Made by a program: the position numbers and the translations under genes. The notes under the pieces are model-generated. The model was not told where the DNA came from. It saw only the letters and a program-made list of their open reading frames with translations, and made no database searches. 32,000 nt of DNA from Prochlorococcus marinus str. NATL2A (GTDB lineage Bacteria; Cyanobacteriota; Cyanobacteriia; PCC-6307; Cyanobiaceae), in NCBI RefSeq assembly GCF_000012465.1, contig NC_007335.2, forward strand, positions 930,001 to 962,000. Direction: 5' to 3'. Shown here piece after piece: positions 8,771 through 26,291 of the stretch. The first letter of the stretch is position 1. Every line of letters starts with the position of its first letter.

Positions 8771-8953
8771 CTAGGATTCACCCCATCTCTTTCCAATTTC
8801 ATATCCCCATAGCTTTGCAAGTTCAACGACATCTTCATGTGTTTTACAACTAGTAATTAATTTATACTTTTCAGGCGAACTATTAATTAATTTAACTAAT
8901 TGATTTAATTGTTCAATTTTATATAAAAACCTTTCATAATCTTTTTTTGACAT
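8771..8953 (-). CDS. Nif11-domain-like small protein
   Basis: 60 aa. F..K......L...I.......L....K..EDVVELAK..GYEI resembles the Nif11 N-terminal domain common in cyanobacteria. Confidence 0.55.
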   Translation of the reverse strand: MSKKDYERFLYKIEQLNQLVKLINSSPEKYKLITSCKTHEDVVELAKLWGYEIGKRWGES

Positions 8954-9058: not shown

Positions 9059-10276
9059 TTAAGACTGTGAATGGTAGGGTTGTTTCCAAACATATCTATC
9101 TATAGCATAATCCTTTTTTACTGCAACACAATTAGTGGCTATGTGCCAAAGAGACTTGTGAATTGGGGTGGGATTATATAGGTATACTTTAGGAAATTTA
9201 TTTTTCAATATTCTCGTTGCAAGTCTTGCATGATAGTGAGGAACTGTTGGTTCAATATGATGAATGGCGTGAGTAGAACCTATAGAGTGATGAAGAAAAT
9301 CAAATATCCTGCCATAGGGTCTATCTATAGATAAGAAGGCTCCTCTCATATAGGAGAATTGACTAGCACCAAGATGTGGAACATCAGTATCTGTATGGTG
9401 GAGCCATGTATAAATAACTAGCCAAATATTAACAACAATAAGAGGACCTAAATAAAGACTAATCATAGAATTAAGTCCAAAATTTATAGACCAAAGGATC
9501 AATAAAAGGAGCATAAAACCAATTCCCCAGTCGGAGATCCATACCTTTTTAGCCCATATGGATGGCCAAAGTTTTTTCGAGAAGGGAGCTGTTGGCCAGA
9601 AATGATTACTGGTCCCATATCGAGGTCCGCCTGTTTTGCCAAGTAGTAAGTAAGCTGGCCATCCCAGAATCAAGTGAAGAAACAGTTGATTAAATCCATA
9701 TAGAATTTTGCCAAAAAACAACGAAGACTCCATTTCATTCTCTCCACCTTTTTTTTCGGATTTACCATCCCCTGAGATCACAACAGGAACATGGGTCTCT
9801 CCATCCGTTATGTGATTGGTAAAAGCATGGTGAACAGCATGCGATCTTTGCCACGAAAAGTATGGAACTAATAAAAAAGAATGCAGACAATATCCGACAA
9901 CTGTTTCAAGTTTACGATTATCAGAAAATGCACCATGTCCACATTCATGAGCTAAAACCCATAGCCCCATTGAAGTTGTCCCAGAGAGAATTGCATATAA
10001 AATCCAAATTGGAATCATCCCCTTGGTAAGAGGGATAGAAAGACCTATCAAAACAACAAAGATCTGAATAACTACTGTCCTGGAGAGATAAAAAAGAGAT
10101 CTATTAGTTTGGCGAGTAAAACAATGCTTAGGTATCGCATCTCTAACTTCTTTTCTAGAGGGAATATCATCCAGTGAAATATCTAATGCTTTCCCATTAA
10201 GACCAGAAGGAAGAAAAGTCCTATTATTAGTTTCGGTATTGACCCTCTCGAATCTAGTAAACAAACTTTTTTTCAA
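9059..10276 (-). CDS. Membrane fatty-acid desaturase (DesA / delta-12-like)
   Basis: 405 aa. Three histidine boxes are present (HECGHG, HAVHH and HAIHH), plus AIPKHCF near the N-terminus and hydrophobic spans between the boxes. Confidence 0.92.
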   Translation of the reverse strand: MKKSLFTRFERVNTETNNRTFLPSGLNGKALDISLDDIPSRKEVRDAIPKHCFTRQTNRSLFYLSRTVVIQIFVVLIGLSIPLTKGMIPIWILYAILSGTTSMGLWVLAHECGHGAFSDNRKLETVVGYCLHSFLLVPYFSWQRSHAVHHAFTNHITDGETHVPVVISGDGKSEKKGGENEMESSLFFGKILYGFNQLFLHLILGWPAYLLLGKTGGPRYGTSNHFWPTAPFSKKLWPSIWAKKVWISDWGIGFMLLLLILWSINFGLNSMISLYLGPLIVVNIWLVIYTWLHHTDTDVPHLGASQFSYMRGAFLSIDRPYGRIFDFLHHSIGSTHAIHHIEPTVPHYHARLATRILKNKFPKVYLYNPTPIHKSLWHIATNCVAVKKDYAIDRYVWKQPYHSQS

Positions 10277-14240: not shown

Positions 14241-14456
14241 TTAATTATATTCTCCTGGTACATCATTCTTTTGTACTGTAACTCTTCCAACTTTTTTACC
14301 TGAAAATCGAAGCAATTCATCGCCTGAGAATTCATACCCTTTGCGTAAGGCAATCAGGGCAACGTCATCTGCGGTTGAGGATGAAAGAACCTCATCTTTT
14401 AAAATGTCGTCATTCTGCATTTCCTTTAAAAATCTTCTTAAGTGATCTAATGACAT
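14241..14456 (-). CDS. Nif11-domain protein
   Basis: 71 aa. L..FL.........L.........DDVALIA...GYEFSGDEL closely follows the Nif11 N-terminal domain pattern. The tail GKKVGRVTVQKNDVPGEYN has no GG site and no Cys. Confidence 0.7.
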   Translation of the reverse strand: MSLDHLRRFLKEMQNDDILKDEVLSSSTADDVALIALRKGYEFSGDELLRFSGKKVGRVTVQKNDVPGEYN

Positions 14457-15884: not shown

Positions 15885-16925
15885 TTGAATCTGATAAAAA
15901 CAAATAAATTTAGAGGCTATCTAAAAGTTTGGGGAGCGCCAATATCTTTACTCATATTCTTATTTTTATTCGGTGCTTTAGGCTATCGATTTACAGAAGG
16001 TTGGGATTGGGGAGACTGTTTATGGATGGTATTGATAACCATTACAACAATAGGCTTTGGTGAAGTTGAAGTTTTGAGTTCGGCTGGTCGGGTTATAACT
16101 TTTTTAATCATCGGAGGGGGATTATTTGTAGTTCAATTAACTCTTCAAAGATTTATACAATTATCTGAACTAGGATATTTCATAAAATTAGAGGAGCTCC
16201 GATTAAGGAGATTAATTAGAAGAATGAAAAATCATGTAATTATATGTGGATATGGTCGTACAGGTAAAGAAATTGCTGACCAATTATATTCTGAAAAAAT
16301 ATCTACACTAATAATAGAAAACGACCCTACAAGAAAAACCGAAGCTGAGGAAAAAGGATTTAACGTCTTATTAGCAGATGCAACAATGGACGAAACATTA
16401 TTACTAGCAGGAGTAAACAATTGTCGTAGCTTAGTGGTTACTCTTCCAAATGATGCAGCGAATTTATATGTTGTTCTTAGTGCAAAAGCTCTAAATGATA
16501 GTTGCAGATTGATCGCTAGGGCAGCGAACGAGGAAGCTGCTAGTAAATTAAAACTCGCAGGAGCTGATGCAGTAGTCAGTCCATATGTTGCGGCAGGGAG
16601 AACAATGGCAGCCTCTGCATTAAGACCTATAGCTGTAGACTTTATAGATTTACTTGCAGGTTCAGATTGCGAAATAGAAGAATTTAAGCTTACTGAACAT
16701 GTTGAAACAATTGAGACTTTCAGAAGTCAACATGAATATGTTTTTGAAATTTCAAAACGAGGAGAAGCACTACTTTTAGCAACTAAAGTCTCGGGTCAAT
16801 TAATAGGTAATCCTAAAAACAAGGTATCTATCTCTCCAGGCATGATTTTGATATTCCTTGGAAGTCAAGAACAATTAAATAGGATTCGAGTTCACCTTAA
16901 AGAAGTTTTAGTAAAAACAACATAG
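15885..16925 (+). CDS. Potassium channel with a C-terminal RCK/TrkA-N domain
   Basis: 346 aa. Two TM helices flank the pore signature TITTIGFGE. Then comes a Rossmann-like HVIICGYGRTGKEIA (TrkA-N) and a TrkA-C-like tail. The start is TTG as given by the track. Confidence 0.88.
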   Translation: MNLIKTNKFRGYLKVWGAPISLLIFLFLFGALGYRFTEGWDWGDCLWMVLITITTIGFGEVEVLSSAGRVITFLIIGGGLFVVQLTLQRFIQLSELGYFIKLEELRLRRLIRRMKNHVIICGYGRTGKEIADQLYSEKISTLIIENDPTRKTEAEEKGFNVLLADATMDETLLLAGVNNCRSLVVTLPNDAANLYVVLSAKALNDSCRLIARAANEEAASKLKLAGADAVVSPYVAAGRTMAASALRPIAVDFIDLLAGSDCEIEEFKLTEHVETIETFRSQHEYVFEISKRGEALLLATKVSGQLIGNPKNKVSISPGMILIFLGSQEQLNRIRVHLKEVLVKTT

Positions 16926-17024
16926 TTAATCTTTGAAAACAATCCAGCGAGGGTTAACACTACAAGAAACACTTAACACCTTAAAAAAAAAATGATTAGA
17001 ACAAAATGAGTTAATTTTACGCGG

Positions 17025-17276
17025 ATGTCATTACAAACAAAAGAAGAGTCAGCTGCTGAAATAGAAACAAAAATTGAGTCAACAAAAATCAATGGGGACG
17101 TATTTTCTAAAGACTACGTAGATTTCTTGAGCGAAGCTGGCTGGAGATTAGAAAAAAAACTTCCATCAAATAGTACAAAATATTCTGACTTGCTAGAAGA
17201 TACCGATTGGAAATCAAATGACATTGATATTAGATCCTCTAAACATTACAGAAGAGATCTTGATGCATTGAGTTGA
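17025..17276 (+). CDS. Hypothetical 83-aa hydrophilic protein
   Basis: Track ORF. No family recognised. Confidence 0.4.
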   Translation: MSLQTKEESAAEIETKIESTKINGDVFSKDYVDFLSEAGWRLEKKLPSNSTKYSDLLEDTDWKSNDIDIRSSKHYRRDLDALS

Positions 17277-17541
17277 TACTTTTCGTATTCAGTTAAAGCT
17301 ACTATTTATATATACATCTAATTATGAGATGTATATTAAATTTTTATCAAAAGAGATGGATTCCGAAAATCAATCGTGGAAAGTATGGGTTTTTGTTTTT
17401 TGCCTCAATGTAATTGCTATTGGCGGAGCTTTTTACCTTAAATCAATTGGAATTGACCTTTATGCCTTCAGGGGTACTTCCTGATTTTTAGTCAGGATGA
17501 CTTTAACGATGAAAAAATCAAATTTAATAGGAATAGATTAA

Positions 17542-17793
17542 ATGGAAAAAGAAAACGAAACCAAATGGAAAAAAGCATTAGATAATATATTAATTTATAA
17601 TCTTTATATTTTAATAATAGGTTCCTTATATCTAGCTTTTAGTTTTGTATTAAGTGTTAATGGGAACTCTCATTTTTATAATTTATTTCAAAAACTCTGG
17701 TATCCAGTATTTATTCCATCGTTAAGCTTATTCTTTACAGCCATATTGGTTGAAGCTGTAATAAACTCTATAGTTGATCGTAAGAATAAATAA
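17542..17793 (+). CDS. Hypothetical 83-aa two-TM protein
   Basis: Two hydrophobic helices (ILIYNLYILIIGSLYLAFSFVL and VFIPSLSLFFTAILVEAVI). Confidence 0.45.
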   Translation: MEKENETKWKKALDNILIYNLYILIIGSLYLAFSFVLSVNGNSHFYNLFQKLWYPVFIPSLSLFFTAILVEAVINSIVDRKNK

Positions 17794-17882
17794 ACTCATG
17801 AAAGGTTAAGCTTTCAACATTTATGACCAATCAATTGTCTTAAAAGATAATTGGAATAAAATAAATAAGATTTAAATTCAAA

Positions 17883-18029
17883 ATGAGATTTAAAGTTTCT
17901 ATGATTAATGATCAAGGTAATTGCCATGAAGAGACTGTTATCGCCAACAATGAAGAGGAAGCAAAAAAAAATGTGCTGGATTTTAATCCCCATTCAACGG
18001 TATTAGAAGCTACTTGGGTCTATAAATAA
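17883..18029 (+). CDS. Possible 48-aa protein
   Basis: Hand-found: MRFKVSMINDQGNCHEETVIANNEEEAKKNVLDFNPHSTVLEATWVYK. It ends 20 nt before the next plus-strand ORF. Confidence 0.35.
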   Translation: MRFKVSMINDQGNCHEETVIANNEEEAKKNVLDFNPHSTVLEATWVYK

Positions 18030-18048
18030 TTTTTAAATAAAAAAATAA

Positions 18049-18402
18049 ATGGAAGAACTTACCTATAAGGATCTGAGCAACAAAGAATTAGACACTCTTA
18101 AAGATATGTATATATCAAGTCGAGTTAACTCTATGACCGAAACTGATCTAAGGAAATTTGTTAAGGAAATAATTATCGATCAAATCAAAGGAACTGTAGG
18201 TAATGCTGAAGAGAAGGAAGCATGGGAAGAAATAAAAGATCATTTCTCTGAAGACTTAAGTACAAAGATTCTTGAAGTGAAAGAAAAATGCAATAAAAAC
18301 CCTAAGGTTGAACAAAAAAGTCAAGAAGAGATTGAGTTTGACAGAAGACTTGGTCTTCTAAAGCAACAACAAGAAGACGAGTCAAGCAAAGACATGTGGT
18401 AA
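18049..18402 (+). CDS. Hypothetical acidic 117-aa protein
   Basis: Track ORF, Glu/Lys-rich and helical. Convergent with the T5orf172 gene. Confidence 0.5.
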   Translation: MEELTYKDLSNKELDTLKDMYISSRVNSMTETDLRKFVKEIIIDQIKGTVGNAEEKEAWEEIKDHFSEDLSTKILEVKEKCNKNPKVEQKSQEEIEFDRRLGLLKQQQEDESSKDMW

Positions 18403-18460
18403 GTTTAAACATCATAAATGTTGTTTAATTTTGATATATATCACTGATAATGACTATATT

Positions 18461-19003
18461 TCAAGAGAGAAAGATAGCGACAAGACGAAATAAGAAAGAA
18501 AAGAAAAGAAAAATAATTAATCTAGTGGATCTATATTTTAATTCATTCCAAAAACTTAAATATTTACCTGAATAAACAAATAAAGAAATAAAGGCTAGTC
18601 CAAATGAAATTCGCTCAATCCAAACAAGTGACTTAGATATAGCGATATTTAAGTCATTAATATATAAAGATATAACTACTAATGTAAGAAAAAAAAATAA
18701 TAATAATAATAATATTGATTTTAAACAAATTCCGAAAGTTAAAATAAAAGGATAATTAAGTATGGAAATTCTTTTTTTTATCTCTTTAATATGAGTGTTT
18801 TCTAATCTAAAATACTCAGTTTGAGGGATTCTGAACTTTTTATAGCGATTATGTAACTCTCTTTCTAATTTCACAAAATCAGCAGTATATAATTTAGCAA
18901 CAACGTTATCTGGCTTGAGTTGTCTCATCCTATTCTCAAAGTTTTTTGTTATGCCAATCTTATATAGATCTTTATTTCTTATTAAGTAAAGCCAACCACT
19001 CAT
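18461..19003 (-). CDS. T5orf172 (MUG113, GIY-YIG-related) domain protein fused to a C-terminal ~3-TM membrane region
   Basis: 180 aa. The N-terminal ~80 aa GWLYLIRNKDLYKIGITKNFENRMRQL...LERELHNRYKKFRI..TEYFRL matches the T5orf172 pattern. The C-terminal ~100 aa has three hydrophobic spans (ILLLLLFFFLTLVVISLY, ISFGLAFISLFVY and LIIFLFFSFLFRLVAIFL). Confidence 0.75.
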   Translation of the reverse strand: MSGWLYLIRNKDLYKIGITKNFENRMRQLKPDNVVAKLYTADFVKLERELHNRYKKFRIPQTEYFRLENTHIKEIKKRISILNYPFILTFGICLKSILLLLLFFFLTLVVISLYINDLNIAISKSLVWIERISFGLAFISLFVYSGKYLSFWNELKYRSTRLIIFLFFSFLFRLVAIFLS

Positions 19004-19043
19004 GTCAATTTAAACTATTACTTATTCAAGATTAATAAGTAAA

Positions 19044-20336
19044 TTACGCCGCATCACTTTTTCTAATTGAATTAAATTTTTCTCTCATCGTAGGATTATT
19101 TCTGGTCAATCTTTTAACCGAAACATCTTGTGCTTTATCATTAGCTAATCTAAGGTTTCTATCAGCGCCAAGTAATGCATCTTTGGTTTTTTGCAAGTGA
19201 TTAATAGATTTATCAATCTCCATAATTGCTGTTTCAAAACGTTTTGAAGCTAGAGCATAATTTTTACCAAAAGAATCCTTAAATAGTTCAAGGCTATTTT
19301 CAAAATTTGTAATATCAATATTCTGCTCCTTAATAGCTGCTAGTTCTGATTTATACTCTAGAGCCTTAAGTGAAGCATTCCTTAATAAAGAAATTATTGG
19401 TAAAAAACATTGCGGACGAACAACATACATTTTTGGATACCGATATGAAAAGTCAACAATTCCAGCGTTAAATAAATCATTATCAGATTCTAATAAAGAA
19501 ACTAATACAGCATATTCGCAATTTTTTTCTAAACGATCTTTGTTTAACTCTTTAAGAAAATCCTCATTCTTCTTCTTGCTAGAAGTGCTATCACATTCGT
19601 TCTTCATCTCAAACATAATAGATACTATTTCGTTTCCTTCACTATCACAGTCACGAAAAATGTAATCACCTTTACTACCAAAACTAGCATCATTATCTTT
19701 ATCAAAATAGGCATTAGGAAAGGCTGTCGCCCTTAGTCGATTAAATTCATTTTCGCAATGTTGCTCAAGAGACTCACCAACCATTTTGGTGGACAATTTT
19801 GTTTTCATATCACGAAGTCTCTCAATTAAATCATCTCTATCTTTTAACTGAATTTCATATCTCATTTTTATAGATTTTTCAGATAATTCCTTTTGAAGCT
19901 CGACTTTATCTAAGTTATTTTTGAGTTTTTCATACCCTTCTTTTAATTCAGTAATTGCGTCAGATACAGCAAGTTTTTTATCAAATTCATTCTTTTCTCT
20001 TGTTTTCTCCAATAAATACTCAAGTGAGTCTCTCTCTTTTTCAAAGGCATGCTTAATCTTGTTCACAGTCATAGTTTTTTCAGCCTGGGCAGAAATCAAT
20101 TGAGACTGAAGGCCTTGCATTTTTTTTTCATTTACAAATGCTGCCTCTTGCATTTGTAATCGAAGATTTTGAATAGCAAGATCAACGGATTTCTGTTTAT
20201 CCCTTTCAAGAATTACAAGTCTTTTCTTCATTTCATCTTCAAACTCCTGATCTCTCACCTGCTTAATAATATTTGAGTAACTATCTTCATCAATGCTGAT
20301 CGTACTACCACATTCAGGACATTTGATTTCATTCAT
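19044..20336 (-). CDS. DUF2130-family protein: N-terminal CxxC, long coiled coil, PD-(D/E)xK-like core (RmuC-like architecture)
   Basis: 430 aa. It begins [33 protein letters not shown], followed by ~150 aa of heptad-like E/K/L-rich sequence. Then [12 protein letters not shown]...KGDYIFRD...[10 protein letters not shown] gives an E...D...ExK arrangement. A second helical region follows. Confidence 0.85.
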
Positions 20337-20941
20337 AACTGATCAAAAGAGACACACAATCTATTTTCTCTTTTTATCTTGTTTCGCTTCAACAAGCAAG
20401 AATTATGTTAAACCCAAAAGCCAGTAATCCAAAGGGATGAGGTTAAGGCTGGATAGTTAGAGAAAGAAGAAATCAGATTAGATTATTCTTTTGATCTTGG
20501 GTAGATTCTAGATAAATCTCCTTTATTTGACTTAATAGCCGAAGATTTCCACTCGTACCATTTTTATATTTCTTGAATAGTCTTCCTCCTCCCAAATCTG
20601 ATTTTGAAATATCAAGATTCCACAAAGTATAAAAAAAATGAGAACACCCAAAAAGATATGCCAATCAAACATTATTGATGCATTTGAATAACGAACATAG
20701 GCTATGACTTTCAACATAATGTCCCTTATGAACGCATCCGTCCAAAAACTTGATAAATACTAAAGTACTTTTAGTACAAGTGAGGTTTTTCACCAGAACC
20801 TCATTAAAAGCTTAAAGGTGATTAATTATATAGTTATTAAAAATTTGAAAAATCTTATTTTGTTTGAGCAATAATTTTTACTACACAATATATCTTTATA
20901 TACAAAATAAAATAAAATTGAGAAGTATTGAATACAACAAA

Positions 20942-21109
20942 ATGACATTACTGAACTTTGCTCTTGCTCACTCAGAGCTAGGCATAAGCCATTTTACAAC
21001 AGATTTAATCCTTGTTCTTTCTTTCGCAATAGTAACAGCACTTCCAATGTCTTTATTACGACCTCAGATACAAGAGGAGAATGTCAAGAGCAACGTTTTC
21101 AAAAGCTGA
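20942..21109 (+). CDS. Possible 55-aa membrane protein
   Basis: First ATG inside the TTG-started track ORF 20864..21109: MTLLNFALAHSELGISHFTTDLILVLSFAIVTALPMSLLRPQIQEENVKSNVFKS. Confidence 0.35.
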   Translation: MTLLNFALAHSELGISHFTTDLILVLSFAIVTALPMSLLRPQIQEENVKSNVFKS

Positions 21110-21397
21110 AGCTAAGGATTTTATTCGTTTATAAGTATCAATAAGTCGTCAACTAAAAGCATACGATAATATAAATCAATATATAAATTATTATGTTAAT
21201 AGACAATTTATTTTTTTATATTGTCTCTAATGGCAATAAAGATCAGTAGACCATTAATATAGAATTTATACAAAGCCCAAAAGATATTATTAAAAAATAT
21301 GTTTACTGCTTATTTTTGAGTCATGATCTGAAATTATTTTCTTTTTTGACACGTTTAAGACTAAGTGTATGTACAATACTAAAACTATAAATCAATC

Positions 21398-21799
21398 ATG
21401 TCAGATAAAAGTTTATTTATATATGATGGTGAATGCCCATTTTGCAATCACTTTGCACAATTAATTGAATTAAAAAGCAGTCTGCCTGAATTCGAAATAA
21501 TAGATGGAAGAAAAAATCTAGCCCTATTAACTCAACTCTATAACCAAGGATATGATTTGAATAAAGGAGCAATTCTAATCAGCGATGAAAATATCATGCA
21601 TGGTGCTGATGCGATTAATTGGATTTGCTCTGAGATCAAGGAGCCTAGCGATTCACTGTTAGAAGTACTCAGGATTATTTTCACGTCTAACAGGATGACT
21701 AATTTTTTATTCCCATTCCTTTTATGGGGAAGAAGATTTTCACTGACATTAAAAGGAAAGGTATGGCATCCAGTCAGCGGAAATCATCAATTTTTCTGA
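21398..21799 (+). CDS. DCC-family thiol-disulfide oxidoreductase (DUF393)
   Basis: 133 aa. The N-terminal IYDGECPFCN CxxC motif and the overall size are characteristic of DUF393/DCC proteins. Confidence 0.8.
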   Translation: MSDKSLFIYDGECPFCNHFAQLIELKSSLPEFEIIDGRKNLALLTQLYNQGYDLNKGAILISDENIMHGADAINWICSEIKEPSDSLLEVLRIIFTSNRMTNFLFPFLLWGRRFSLTLKGKVWHPVSGNHQFF

Positions 21800-22062
21800 A
21801 GTAGTCACGCAAACTGAATTCATAATTCTAAGTTGAGCAAATATTAAAACTTTAATAGTTTGAGAATAATAACCAATAGGACGAATTAGACGTAAAAATT
21901 AATTGATGCAATAGCTAAGACTTATCTCAAATACATTCATCAATTTTGGCGAACACTTTGCATTTTATATTCCATTTGTAACATCAGTTGATGAGAGGAT
22001 AGATCCAATACCTCGGAGGAGTTTAAATATGTAAAATAAGATTTAAAGTAACTAAGCAACAT

Positions 22063-22167
22063 ATGCTTATAGAAATCCTTGGGAGTAGTAGTTCATTACT
22101 AGTTATTGTTTTGATTGGTTTATCCATATATTTTGGAATCCAAGCTCAAACAAGAAAAATAAAATGA
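22063..22167 (+). CDS. Possible 34-aa single-TM micro-protein
   Basis: Hand-found: MLIEILGSSSSLLVIVLIGLSIYFGIQAQTRKIK. Very short. Confidence 0.25.
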   Translation: MLIEILGSSSSLLVIVLIGLSIYFGIQAQTRKIK

Positions 22168-22241
22168 TGGTTAGTTATTTGAATAATTACGAAGGAATCT
22201 AACCAACCAGTATGGATACCCAAAAAAAATTTAAAGTTAAC

Positions 22242-22457
22242 TTATTCATATAGATGCTTTTTAACTTTCTCAAGACTAAGGCCCCTCTTACGCTCAATAC
22301 TTGAAATAGGTATCCAACTCCAATTCAAAAAAAGAGTAAGCATTGCAGCAACAAAAATAGACAATGGTAAAACGAGCTCAATAAAAAAATGTCGAATGAG
22401 ATAAACCATTAAGTCTGAAGTATTAGTAACAATTTCGTTATAAAGGGGATCAAACAA
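22242..22457 (-). CDS. Hypothetical 71-aa membrane protein
   Basis: Track ORF with one TM helix (FFIELVLPLSIFVAAMLTLFL). Confidence 0.4.
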   Translation of the reverse strand: MFDPLYNEIVTNTSDLMVYLIRHFFIELVLPLSIFVAAMLTLFLNWSWIPISSIERKRGLSLEKVKKHLYE

Positions 22458-22925
22458 GAATTAAAAATACGTACGAGGTAATAAGGATAACGAAATTAGA
22501 TATCAGAATGTGAATATAACTAATTAGAGACAAGATAAAAAAGATTTTATACCTGATCATGCAAAAGGGCCATATCCAGAGAATTGAGCGCTAGACAAGG
22601 GTTAATTTCAAACGGACTCGATCATGAGTAATAAATGCCCTAGATTTTCTAATGACAAAATCGTCAAATGAAAAAACTTTCATAATTAAAATTCTCTAGA
22701 GAAAGAAACTAGAAAATACAAAAAACATATTAAATTCTAAATGGTTTATGCAATTATATTTGAGAAAAAATTTTTTTTAGCTAAAAGTCAAAAAAAAGAG
22801 GCGTAAGAAGGAAGAATCCTCTAAGTACAAAACGGAAAATGCTGTAAAAAAGGGACGAGAGATCTCGCTAGGTAAATAAAATATAGATGAGCAATCAGAC
22901 AAATTTAACTAGAAAAATTTAGCAA

Positions 22926-22960
22926 ATAAAAAAGCCGAGAGGCAGATATGCTTCTCGGCT
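22926..22960 (-). terminator. Rho-independent terminator downstream of the AbrB-like gene
   Basis: On the minus strand it reads AGCCGAGAAGCATATCTGCCTCTCGGCTTTTTTATTTGC. That is an 8-9 bp GC-rich stem (AGCCGAGA / TCTCGGCT) followed by T6, about 34 nt after the stop at 22994. Confidence 0.75.
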
Positions 22961-22993
22961 AAATCTAAATGATTTGATTCAGTTTTTTAAAGA

Positions 22994-23350
22994 TTAACCT
23001 TCTCCTTCTGGAACCAAACGGAAACCTTTACGTCCCATCTTAATCTCAAAATTATCACCAGGTTTGAGATCTAAAAGAGCTGTATAGGCCTTTCCTATCA
23101 ATAGGTTTCCATTTCCTTGGACGGTAGCCACATAACTAAGCTTTCTACCACCTTTACCAATACCACCAGCACTTTCAGCTGCTAGGTTTACACCTTTAGC
23201 TTCTAGAAGTGCTTCATAAAAAGCAGTATAATTAAGACGTTCTCCGCCTCCTTTCTTTGTGGAAACATATCCACAAGCTTTAACAAGATCAGATTTTGAG
23301 ACATCTCCCAAGTCTTTGACCTTGGCTAATAAATCCTTACCAGTGAGCAT
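22994..23350 (-). CDS. Cyanobacterial AbrB-family (CyAbrB) DNA-binding regulator
   Basis: 118 aa. The N-terminal MLTGKDLLAKVKDLGDVSKSDLVKACGY region and the C-terminal SpoVT/AbrB-like GNLLIGKAYTALLDLKPGDNFEIKMGRKGFRLVP are typical of CyAbrB proteins. The gene is visibly GC-richer than its surroundings and has its own strong terminator. Confidence 0.85.
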   Translation of the reverse strand: MLTGKDLLAKVKDLGDVSKSDLVKACGYVSTKKGGGERLNYTAFYEALLEAKGVNLAAESAGGIGKGGRKLSYVATVQGNGNLLIGKAYTALLDLKPGDNFEIKMGRKGFRLVPEGEG

Positions 23351-23990
23351 GATAAATAAATGGTTGTACTTATAATACTAACTTATAATTAACAAACTTA
23401 CAATATTTACATTAGTCCTAGACATTAAAGCTAAAAAAAATGGGAACGGAAGCTACTAGATTAAACTCAGGAATTCAAGGTTATAGGGAAAATTATTCAT
23501 GGTTAAGACAATTGATTTATAGGAAAAGTCCTTTTTGGCATGTTCTAATATGAATGATTTGAAAGATCATTTAGCTGTTAGAAAACGCTCAATCGCAAGC
23601 AATAGCAGGATATATTTATAAAATAAGGAGAAATCTATGCATCCTTAAAGACTGCTAAGAGCAATTTGAAAAGTTCATATAATCAAATCGTTCAATATAT
23701 AAAGCTTTATTTTTGAATGTTTGTTAAAGCGTGAATCAGAAAAAATTACTTATTACAACAAAAAATTAATATCTCTTAAAACCGCTCTGATTTGAACTGC
23801 ATCTATATACATCCTTTAGCATTTACTGGATTATTAGGTATTCTATTAAATTGCTAGTATCGACAAGAAATAATTACTTTGAACCTTACCTTTAGATTTA
23901 TTATTCATATCAAATCAGACGAAGAGCTATAGATCGTAATTTTTTTAAAATGGATGGAAATCAAATCTTCTAAAAATAATCGCACAAACT

Positions 23991-24712: not shown

Positions 24713-25345
24713 TTATCTAGTTAAAGCCAAAGCCCAATTGGGAGAGGAAGGACTAGAGCCCAAAAAATTCTTAGTCAAAGAGGAATTGCATTTAGCAACG
24801 ATTCCATTGGTAGGAAGATTTGAAAACAATTCATTCTTGATCCATTGAGAATGCCATCTTTTGACTTGCCTAGGATCATCAGTTCTTAGAGTTATGGGGA
24901 CCTCGAATCCCCAGTTTTGAAGTTGGGTCAAATCTGACAACTCATCACTTTTAGAGCAAAAAATTTGGAATGCTTTAAATAAAATTGAGGTACTATTGTC
25001 AATTTCCGAGAATGAGTTCGAAAGCAATTGCTCTATCGAGATCTTTGAATTAGAAAAAGGTGTATATAAAACTCCCTCCAACTCAACTTCAACTTTTAGA
25101 GAGTCATCAATACTCAAAGGAATAGAATTAATATTCCTAATGTTTTCAATAATCTCACTATCGTCACGAGTATAGGCATCTACTAATTGTCCATATTTGT
25201 ATCTAAGTCCTATTGCACACCCATCGATTTTAGGCTGCACAACCATGGTTGATCCCTCTGGTAACTTTGCCCACCAGCTAGAGAAGCAATCCTTATCAAG
25301 TCCAAGTAATCTCATATCTATATCAATAGGAAGATGTCGAGCCAA
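24713..25345 (-). CDS. Stand-alone LigA-type (NAD-dependent DNA ligase) adenylation/nucleotidyltransferase-domain protein, paralogue 1
   Basis: 210 aa. Colinear by eye with the E. coli LigA NTase domain: PKIDGCAIGLRY (motif I KxDG), TRDD (TRGDG), NIRNINSIPLSI (NVRTIRAIPLKL), VELEGVLY (LEVRGEVF), LQNWGFEV (FKKWGLPV), TNGIVAKCNS (DGVVIKVNS) and SPNWALAL (APRWAVAFKF). No Ia, OB, Zn, HhH or BRCT parts are present. Confidence 0.75.
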   Translation of the reverse strand: MARHLPIDIDMRLLGLDKDCFSSWWAKLPEGSTMVVQPKIDGCAIGLRYKYGQLVDAYTRDDSEIIENIRNINSIPLSIDDSLKVEVELEGVLYTPFSNSKISIEQLLSNSFSEIDNSTSILFKAFQIFCSKSDELSDLTQLQNWGFEVPITLRTDDPRQVKRWHSQWIKNELFSNLPTNGIVAKCNSSLTKNFLGSSPSSPNWALALTR

Positions 25346-25714: not shown

Positions 25715-25969
25715 ATGACCATACAAGAGAAATATCCTGAGAATATTCCATGGGATTTAACAACTATCGATCAAAGTAACTACAAATCAATTCAATGGAT
25801 GCTATCCAAGGCAGACATCGTTTATACATTCACAAGGAGTCGTATAGACAATAATTATGTCTACATACAAAAAAATGGTGGTAAAAGAAAGGCATATAAA
25901 GAATATGAAGCTAGATTTACTTACCAAAGATTGTTTGACGAGGGATATTCATTAGCTGCCTTTTCCTGA
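25715..25969 (+). CDS. Hypothetical 84-aa protein, tandem paralogue 1
   Basis: Shares EKYPE..PWDL...and AR(F/L)TYQ(R/Q)L(F/L)D(E/K)G(Y/F) with the equally long ORF 26037..26291. Confidence 0.5.
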   Translation: MTIQEKYPENIPWDLTTIDQSNYKSIQWMLSKADIVYTFTRSRIDNNYVYIQKNGGKRKAYKEYEARFTYQRLFDEGYSLAAFS

Positions 25970-26036: not shown

Positions 26037-26291
26037 ATGCCAAGGGTAAAAAGAGAAAAGTATCCAGAGAAGGCTCCATGGGATTTAGGACCATTATCTG
26101 AGCATAAGAATCAGGAAAATTGGAGACTAGTAAGAGGATCTGAAGTTGTCATTTTTGCTAGGAAAGGAGAGGACAACCATTTTTTTATCATGCAAAGAGA
26201 CGACAAAGAACCTATTCAGATCCTTGCGTTTCAAGCAAGACTTACATATCAACAACTTTTAGATAAAGGTTTCAAACTTGAAGTTTCATAA
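26037..26291 (+). CDS. Hypothetical 84-aa protein, tandem paralogue 2
   Basis: See 25715..25969. Same length, same strand, 67 nt apart. Confidence 0.5.
   Translation: MPRVKREKYPEKAPWDLGPLSEHKNQENWRLVRGSEVVIFARKGEDNHFFIMQRDDKEPIQILAFQARLTYQQLLDKGFKLEVS

Follow-up and report, generated by a model that had tools for sequence, protein, structure and literature searches.

SNIPE (PD-Lambda-1), a GIY-YIG nuclease of the inner membrane, cleaves the DNA of phages while it is being injected, and its membrane anchor prevents it from cutting the cell's own DNA; its nuclease domain is conserved, while its membrane-proximal region is variable (PMC13190303). OLD nucleases have been divided into solitary enzymes (class 1), Gabija (class 2), retron (class 3) and PARIS (class 4) systems (PMC10568477). 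RmuC and DUF2130 (COG4487) are both PD-(D/E)XK families of unknown molecular function, the latter being listed as a family of unknown function in the census by Steczkiewicz et al. 2012 (PMC3424549). We analyzed a stretch of 32,000 nucleotides (nt) from Prochlorococcus marinus str. NATL2A (NC_007335.2, positions 930,001 to 962,000; hereafter the window), in which a DUF2130 gene is followed on the same strand by a gene for a 180-amino-acid (aa) protein that joins a T5orf172 domain to transmembrane (TM) helices (T5orf172-TM). In our preferred reading, to which we assign a probability of roughly 55%, these are two independently evolved nuclease-type genes that came to be adjacent a single time and that this lineage probably co-transcribes. 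Rather than a portable two-gene defense system, they resemble two unconnected genes, each possibly directed against foreign DNA.

The gene pair occupies one syntenic position in one lineage

The pair comprises the following features, supported by open reading frames (ORFs), Pfam matches, hydropathy and AlphaFold2 (AF2) models:

19044–20336, minus strand: DUF2130 gene, 430 aa (ORF; Pfam PF09903), with a CxxC knuckle, a long coiled coil and a PD-(D/E)xK-type core
20250–20336, minus strand: CPxC beta-knuckle, DUF2130 residues 1–29 (C6 and C9 invariant; AF2 strands)
19776–20249, minus strand: coiled-coil hairpin of two long helices, DUF2130 residues 30–187 (AF2 helices)
19047–19775, minus strand: nuclease-like core (E188, D224, E243-x-K245) and C-terminal helices, DUF2130 residues 188–430 (motif, AF2)
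19004–19043, minus strand: spacer of 40 nt with a weak, non-conserved AT-rich hairpin (sequence, fold)
18461–19003, minus strand: T5orf172-TM gene, 180 aa (ORF), downstream of the DUF2130 gene
18764–19003, minus strand: T5orf172/MUG113 (GIY-YIG-clan) domain, residues 1–80 of the 180-aa protein (Pfam, conserved residues)
18461–18763, minus strand: membrane tail, residues 81–180 of the 180-aa protein (about three hydrophobic helices, fast-evolving)

An earlier note on this stretch had described two minus-strand genes 40 nt apart and proposed them as a candidate two-gene defense or abortive-infection module in accessory-looking DNA. The two ORFs and their spacing were confirmed. To examine the pairing from the side of the smaller protein, we aligned 27 of its membrane-tailed relatives and fetched 67 loci from species-representative genomes. 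DUF2130 was encoded directly upstream on the same strand in 20/20 loci whose T5orf172-TM protein aligned over most or all of its length (43–90% identity), with gaps of 19–56 nt, and it adjoined T5orf172-TM in 4/4 informative metagenome contigs. All 20 paired loci shared the gene order of the window on both sides (DCC1-like, AbrB-like, DUF7326, TrkA-type channel, desaturase and more), and both genes were present in each of them between identical flanks, that is, without presence/absence variation. Since the 20 loci are fully syntenic, they represent one vertically inherited arrangement and not repeated co-occurrence, and an adjacency of single origin in a syntenic position adds no independent evidence for a module.

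The remaining 47 loci, with fetched flanks of up to 10 kb, lacked DUF2130 near the T5orf172 relative. Eight of them belong to other Prochlorococcus clades (MIT 0603 among them) and carry a T5orf172-TM gene of 167–184 aa next to the same DCC1-like gene, in five cases also near a TrkA-type gene, with an upstream spacer of 160–290 nt and a different small upstream ORF. The absence of DUF2130 from this equivalent neighborhood indicates that it is dispensable. Upstream of the solitary T5orf172-TM gene, these eight loci (L028, L030, L031, L036 and L038–L041, at ~9520–9820) mostly encode a conserved membrane peptide of ~60 aa, MHLSPLFAMYGQPGIPWDFYLLTFFHALF..., whose sequence was read in L031, L036, L038 and L040; it is absent from positions 16901–23500 of the window. 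A clean insertion of DUF2130 between T5orf172-TM and its old promoter was considered and rejected, as the small upstream ORF of the other clades is missing from this region.

Complementarily, we assembled a set of DUF2130 loci (plasmids, chromosomes, metagenomes and IMG/VR), ~91 of them non-redundant and outside the lineage, and searched them with a hidden Markov model (HMM) of the T5orf172 domain built from 146 diverse sequences, which returned 51 matches as a positive control. None of the ~91 loci contained a match; hits among DUF2130 loci were confined to four Prochlorococcus-type metagenome contigs. The adjacency thus arose once. It was found at a single syntenic position in a single lineage and in neither independent lineages nor other positions, and neither variable presence nor an island location of the pair was seen. 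A recurrent module is therefore not borne out (0 pairings in the 47 and ~91 other loci), and the description of the DNA as accessory-looking has to be abandoned, as every related genome locus that we examined keeps the synteny of the entire region, in which no defense genes could be recognized. The earlier note had also stated that its idea would fail if DUF2130 were a syntenic core gene with unrelated neighbors; here, DUF2130 is indeed a syntenic core gene of the lineage, but its neighbor is always the same T5orf172-TM gene.

The spacer offers little further structure. It holds a 9-bp AT-rich hairpin with a fold energy of −5.5 kcal/mol, and a terminator scan of the 40 nt returned no terminator-like site. 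Across 21 related loci, the spacers measure 19–56 nt and the hairpin structure is not kept. We ruled out the hairpin as a terminator or regulatory element because it is weak and not conserved in relatives. The claim that no terminator-like hairpin separates the genes hence agrees with the scan, although a hairpin does exist.

Both genes are under purifying selection

Ratios of nonsynonymous to synonymous substitution rates (dN/dS) were computed from 17 sequences, namely the window and 16 syntenic loci. DUF2130 gave 0.083 for the whole gene, 0.146 for residues 1–150 and 0.054 for core residues 151–430, the core being more tightly constrained than the fatty-acid desaturase of the region. For T5orf172-TM, the N-domain yielded 0.142 and the membrane tail 0.509, the highest value of the region; most neighboring genes ranged from 0.08 to 0.26, and a small ORF at 22242–22457 reached 0.381. 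Both genes are clearly under purifying selection and functional. The value of the tail is consistent with an anchor under loose constraint as well as with diversifying selection.

A further small gene lies on the same strand:

20532–20717, minus strand: single-TM peptide of ~52 aa (window ORF of 61 aa), 195 nt upstream of DUF2130

This peptide, MLKIVAYVRYSNASIMFDWHIFLGALIFFILCGILIFQNQIWEEEDYSRNKK, was found in 16/17 syntenic loci, is called as a 77-aa gene in CP114777 and matches no Pfam family. With a dN/dS of 0.128, it evolves as a coding gene. It is a possible third member of the same-strand cluster, linked to the pair by its position alone.

DUF2130 is a conserved family with a likely nuclease fold

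The 430-aa protein matches Pfam DUF2130 (PF09903/COG4487) over residues 154–413 with E = 8.6e-88 and 294 bits (cut-off 26.7), covering profile positions 2–255 of 255, which establishes family membership. It is 50–62% identical over its full length to homologues from Proteobacteria, Verrucomicrobia and Lactococcus plasmids. The CPECG start and the GESLEQ, GDYIF and FEMK motifs are all present; C6, C9, E188, D224 and, in the E243-M-K245 motif, E243 and K245 show no variation among 51 homologues, which come from several phyla, nor in a set of 144 homologues. The sequence features that the earlier note had read from this protein (CPECG, a coiled coil and an E...D...ExK core) thus hold.

Structure prediction with AF2 placed strands at residues 2–5 and 12–15 and helices at 30–112 and 118–187. 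The full-length model had a predicted local distance difference test (pLDDT) score of 58, with the core below 50, and was too poor to use. A domain-only model of residues 150–430 reached a pLDDT of 75.8 and showed an a-b-b-b-a-b core order, with E188 on helix a1, D224 on b2 and ExK on b3, in agreement with a PD-(D/E)xK motif. Foldseek found no significant match of the core model in the PDB, its two best, non-significant hits being the PD-(D/E)xK restriction enzymes AspBHI and MspJI, and a profile search against PDB sequences gave coiled-coil noise only. In the literature searched, DUF2130 appeared in incidental mentions and in the PD-(D/E)XK census (PMC3424549) only. With no significant fold match, the PD-(D/E)xK assignment draws on the motifs, the medium-confidence model and the literature, from which a nuclease fold appears likely.

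The earlier note had compared this architecture with RmuC. In both proteins, a PD-(D/E)xK-type domain comes after a long coiled coil, so the likeness in layout stands; at the profile level, DUF2130 has no match to RmuC (PF02646) at E ≤ 1 in Pfam or NCBIfam. Moreover, DUF2130 carries an N-terminal CxxC knuckle, has no hydrophobic segment (maximum KD19 of 1.0 in the hydropathy analysis) and forms a distinct Pfam family. DUF2130 also lacks a match to any PADLOC model.

The N-terminus has a single CxxC pair, and the other invariant cysteine and histidine residues (H193, C194, C273) lie in the nuclease core. Any zinc site would hence have to be completed elsewhere; it might join the N-terminus to the core that follows the coiled-coil hairpin, or it might link two subunits. 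The coiled coil itself varies in length through repeat-like blocks of ~36 aa (homologues of 373–630 aa, L003–L190), while the core is nearly invariant.

A phage origin of DUF2130 was also considered. A search of 50,697 phage genomes gave no match, and several of the 22 IMG/VR matches have an OLD gene directly upstream, like bacterial islands; we rejected this origin on both grounds.

T5orf172-TM resembles SNIPE in concept and differs from it in architecture

Residues 3–79 of the 180-aa protein match MUG113 (7.7e-16; 58.9 bits, cut-off 22.3) and T5orf172 (2.4e-12; 47.7 bits, cut-off 20), passing both family thresholds, and GIY-YIG at 1.4e-3, where 19.3 bits fall just under the cut-off of 22.6. 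Kyte–Doolittle analysis indicated a soluble N-domain followed by hydrophobic segments at ~84–115, 125–145 and 160–180. The T5orf172/MUG113 domain joined to about three TM helices, as described in the earlier note, is thereby corroborated by Pfam and hydropathy. Y6, R25, E47, H51, R58 and E63 are kept in >88% of 146 diverse T5orf172 relatives (Y6 in 136/147, R25 in 137/147 and E63 in 134/147), and by their spacing, Y6, R25 and E63 would map to GIY-YIG catalytic positions. A K/R-rich linker before the first helix and a positively charged second loop suggest that the N-domain is cytoplasmic. A profile search against PDB sequences returned nothing for this protein.

Exhaustively searching 1.8 billion representatives yielded 556 relatives. 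About 12 clusters (50% identity) align over the full length, and dozens more share the N-domain (YLIRNxDLYKIGIT...RIPQTEYFRL), followed by unrelated tails of 2–4 helices. Nearly all genomic matches come from Prochlorococcus or marine and freshwater Synechococcus-type genomes, and the genes persist in several streamlined Prochlorococcus clades. Among phage genomes there was one weak match, and IMG/VR matches are just 31–39% identical; a phage origin was ruled out on these findings.

The family has expanded in picocyanobacteria, several of whose genomes contain multiple T5orf172 loci, and tandem T5orf172-domain genes occur in some Prochlorococcus and Synechococcus loci (L052, 162–1523; L058, 8298–10252; L065, 8986–10699; L029). 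In one single-cell genome (L021, 8286–8833), T5orf172-TM is broken into two ORFs (119 and 52 aa) next to an intact DUF2130, reflecting either a sequencing error or an early pseudogene. No recurrent alternative partner of T5orf172-TM genes was found in other picocyanobacteria.

SNIPE is the closest characterized functional analogue that we can propose for T5orf172-TM. Both combine a GIY-YIG/T5orf172-type domain with a membrane anchor (here, the segments after residue 84), and in both a conserved nuclease domain contrasts with a highly variable membrane-proximal part. However, T5orf172-TM is not a SNIPE member, as it lacks DUF4041 and has the reverse domain order. SNIPE contains a central DUF4041 domain that binds DNA and the tape measure protein, of which T5orf172-TM shows no trace (Pfam, E ≤ 1) and for which there is no room before its first helix. 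SNIPE has a single N-terminal helix, whereas T5orf172-TM places the nuclease domain at the N-terminus and about three helices at the C-terminus. Finally, SNIPE is ~490 aa long and sporadic, whereas T5orf172-TM has 180 aa, is fixed in a lineage and is known here from sequence alone. In the same line, the PADLOC PD-Lambda-1 models gave weak hits in their nuclease region only, at E = 0.012 for the window protein (profile positions 357–451 of 491, hence no full-length match) and at 2.4e-4 for a family member. The earlier note had reasoned that a sensor or nuclease paired with a membrane-tethered effector is a common logic of abortive infection; a membrane-tethered GIY-YIG nuclease is a proven means of defense in SNIPE (PMC13190303), but the pairing is not recurrent.

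PADLOC also returned PDC-S57 for the window protein (E = 3.6e-7) and for nine out of ten family members (1e-8 to 1e-12), the tenth having none. PDC-S57 likewise carries a T5orf172-type domain at the N-terminus of a ~200-aa protein; its alignment covers positions ~5–100 of 212, and the C-terminal half never aligns, so that no full-length match exists. PDC-S57 is itself only a computational candidate for a single-gene system, and the literature searched held no mention of it.

DUF2130 accompanies defense genes in other phyla

Outside the lineage, a ~626-aa class-1-like OLD ATPase/TOPRIM gene adjoins DUF2130 in 12 of 91 non-redundant loci, with 'Old' as its best PADLOC model (E ~1e-58 to 1e-65). 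In nine of the 12 it lies directly upstream, ending 2 nt before DUF2130 or overlapping it by 1–4 nt. The loci are distributed as follows:

OLD upstream of DUF2130: L005, L073, L083, L086, L087, L151, L169, L172, L173
OLD downstream of DUF2130: L096, L101, L143
OLD-DUF2130 cassette in E. coli: L200, L201

The 51 operon-like DUF2130 neighbors included 16 ABC ATPases, 11 of these with an OLD-TOPRIM domain; other such neighbors were Res/methyltransferase, SIR2, HsdR, TerB and GmrSD genes. Among 5,426 complete E. coli genomes, three carry the OLD-DUF2130 cassette, on tRNA-linked islands next to restriction-modification (R-M) systems of type III or type I; a cassette lies in E. coli H6 (NZ_CP010170, 3963320–3966612). 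In other phyla, DUF2130 is often mobile, being found in integrative islands, and most often comes right after a class-1-like OLD gene, much as GajB is placed with respect to GajA. The OLD classes of PMC10568477 do not include such a pairing, we found no description of it in the literature searched, and the window has no OLD gene.

A link to SIR2 or SIR2-HerA was seen three times (L076–L079; L098, 1702–6548; L110, 1043–3682). DUF2130 shares an operon-like cluster with SIR2-HerA in Burkholderia Tn7-like cargo and in a marine contig, and SIR2 follows it in the third locus. In Burkholderia (L076–L079, 8001–12653), DUF2130 comes first in the cargo cluster, its overlap with the SIR2 gene measuring 4 nt, and a TIR-domain gene is found nearby. 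Neither SIR2 nor HerA was found in the Prochlorococcus window. Solitary DUF2130 genes among housekeeping genes also occur in Mitsuaria and Variovorax.

In a neighbor-joining tree, the Prochlorococcus DUF2130 groups with contigs L129, L148 and L152. In these three, DUF2130 is flanked by an upstream DUF1499 gene and an unrelated Cys-rich 165-aa gene; L148 and L152 further share an upstream gene cluster whose first gene is of the orange carotenoid protein (OCP) type (Pfam: orange carotenoid protein in L152). By this placement, the Prochlorococcus gene belongs to a cyanobacterial sub-clade of solitary chromosomal genes. A recent horizontal import, which the 57% identity to proteobacterial plasmid copies might have suggested, was rejected on the basis of the tree. 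The window copy is hence a vertically inherited cyanobacterial gene, and the defense-island argument transfers to it only weakly. Enrichment beside defense genes holds for DUF2130 in other phyla, but not in the window nor in the closest cyanobacterial relatives. The earlier note's remark that such genes recur in defense islands is accordingly right for DUF2130 with OLD, SIR2-HerA and R-M in other phyla and does not extend to the window region, which is not a defense island.

Weighing the alternatives

In our preferred reading, DUF2130 and T5orf172-TM would have become neighbors once in the ancestor of the low-light (NATL/MIT0801-like) Prochlorococcus lineage, where the pair is probably co-transcribed. 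DUF2130 would be a dimeric, metal-dependent coiled-coil DNA nuclease, and the 180-aa protein a minimal GIY-YIG/T5orf172 nuclease domain held at the cytoplasmic membrane face by a fast-diverging anchor of 2–4 helices. By analogy to SNIPE, such tethering may keep the nuclease off the chromosome and aim it at DNA entering or lying at the membrane. The data show that the genes are real, together with their domains, conservation, selection, distribution and genomic contexts; nuclease activity, topology, co-transcription, any anti-phage role and any cooperation of the pair are what we infer. Several points weigh against this reading. Defense genes are not typically fixed and syntenic as these two are, and this state could equally indicate housekeeping roles. 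The nuclease function of both families is predicted, and the DUF2130 fold has no significant structural match. The adjacency at 19–56 nt is kept lineage-wide, with T5orf172-TM down to 43% identity, which is compatible with a functional operon and an acquired cooperation. Lastly, the T5orf172-TM genes of different clades are judged orthologous from 41–60% identity, most of it within the N-domain, plus one or two neighbors in common.

A true lineage-specific defense or abortive-infection operon, maybe including the 52-aa peptide, in which DUF2130 senses or cuts foreign DNA and T5orf172-TM acts as effector, seems unlikely to us. The same-strand arrangement, with spacers too short or nearly too short to hold transcription signals of their own, would suit it, as would the retention of both genes under purifying selection in all 20 genome loci and four contigs. 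The defense association of DUF2130 in other phyla, the weak matches of the T5orf172 domain to PD-Lambda-1/SNIPE and PDC-S57, and a fast-evolving membrane tail reminiscent of the SNIPE variable region point the same way. These have to be set against the single origin in a fully syntenic position and the occurrence of each gene without the other in every other lineage sampled. Moreover, the presence of the pair does not vary, the 32 kb contain neither an island nor another defense gene, and DUF2130 lacks a PADLOC model match. We are likewise doubtful of a housekeeping role free of phage defense, with DUF2130 as a DNA repair or recombination factor following RmuC-like logic and T5orf172-TM as a constitutive membrane nuclease for DNA turnover or uptake. 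Fixation, synteny and strong constraint (dN/dS of 0.054 in the DUF2130 core) are what such genes would display. The nearest DUF2130 relatives stand alone in a stable cyanobacterial setting, downstream of DUF1499 and close to an OCP cluster, solitary copies also sit among housekeeping genes in Mitsuaria and Variovorax, and T5orf172-TM persists in several streamlined clades. Yet DUF2130 is missing from the equivalent neighborhood of other Prochlorococcus clades, is rare and island-borne in E. coli (3/5,426 genomes), is repeatedly linked to OLD, SIR2-HerA and R-M genes and has no Pfam match to RmuC.

That the T5orf172 gene is a selfish, homing-endonuclease-like parasite inserted beside DUF2130 strikes us as highly improbable. 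T5orf172/GIY-YIG domains are common in phage homing endonucleases (PMC10448857), and several Prochlorococcus genomes have multiple or tandem T5orf172 genes. However, the gene is fixed at a syntenic position within the lineage next to a flanking gene common to other clades, its N-domain is under purifying selection, and homing has no use for a conserved membrane anchor of several helices. Phage genomes gave one weak match and IMG/VR 31–39% identity, and the data show neither presence/absence polymorphism at identical sites nor cleavage of an empty allele. A bolder variant of the defense idea is a long shot: in low-light clade I (LLI) Prochlorococcus, the membrane peptide, DUF2130 and T5orf172-TM might form a fixed, lineage-wide entry-point system that destroys phage DNA, SNIPE-like but split over polypeptides, and DUF2130 might more broadly be a portable nuclease that joins OLD, SIR2-HerA and further defense systems as an accessory.

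Implications

To our knowledge, Prochlorococcus has few recognized anti-phage systems, resists phages mainly through cell-surface changes and is generally regarded as almost devoid of recognized defense systems. Conserved, membrane-anchored minimal GIY-YIG nucleases in picocyanobacteria would thus be a new place to seek intracellular immunity in abundant ocean phototrophs, and the work on SNIPE supplies a concrete, testable mechanism for the T5orf172-TM family. DUF2130, an uncharacterized PD-(D/E)xK family strongly conserved across phyla, emerges as a recurrent partner of OLD nucleases and SIR2-HerA in mobile islands, and its pairing with OLD would extend the context-based classification of OLD systems. 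The Prochlorococcus pair is not a new portable system, and it provides a caution: a tight, conserved adjacency in one clade is no evidence for a module when the whole neighborhood is syntenic. The main value of the finding lies in two leads: a mechanism that may be SNIPE-like in the picocyanobacterial T5orf172-TM family, and the association of DUF2130 with OLD and with SIR2-HerA in other phyla.

Other features of the window

The window has a low GC content (~30%), its region is collinear with CP114777, and the closest matches of its proteins are named Prochlorococcus marinus, MIT 0801 and MIT 1011. Scans of the 32 kb for tRNAs and Rfam families found none, and integrase or transposase families were absent among the Pfam matches listed for window ORFs. 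A PADLOC search of the window proteins returned no defense protein, and PADLOC and Pfam together revealed no recognizable defense gene around the pair. No OLD or TOPRIM protein is encoded in the window, and its sole ABC ATPase is a membrane transporter 17 kb away.

Several neighboring genes showed features of their own. An AbrB-like 118-aa protein (22994–23350, minus strand) is 100% identical across all syntenic loci compared (dN 0, dS 0.17), an extreme conservation for a small regulator. A 210-aa protein (24713–25345, minus strand), conserved in syntenic loci, matches part of the adenylation domain of NAD-dependent DNA ligase (PF01653, E = 1.1e-18), and a second window ORF matched PF01653 in a batch scan. 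Two tandem ORFs of equal length (84 aa; 25715–25969 and 26037–26291, both plus strand) are 68–98% conserved across syntenic loci and have no Pfam match. Finally, small ORFs at ~14241–14456 and ~8771–8950 (both minus strand) have CP114777 counterparts with Nif11-type domains (PF07862) and may encode precursor peptides of the prochlorosin kind.

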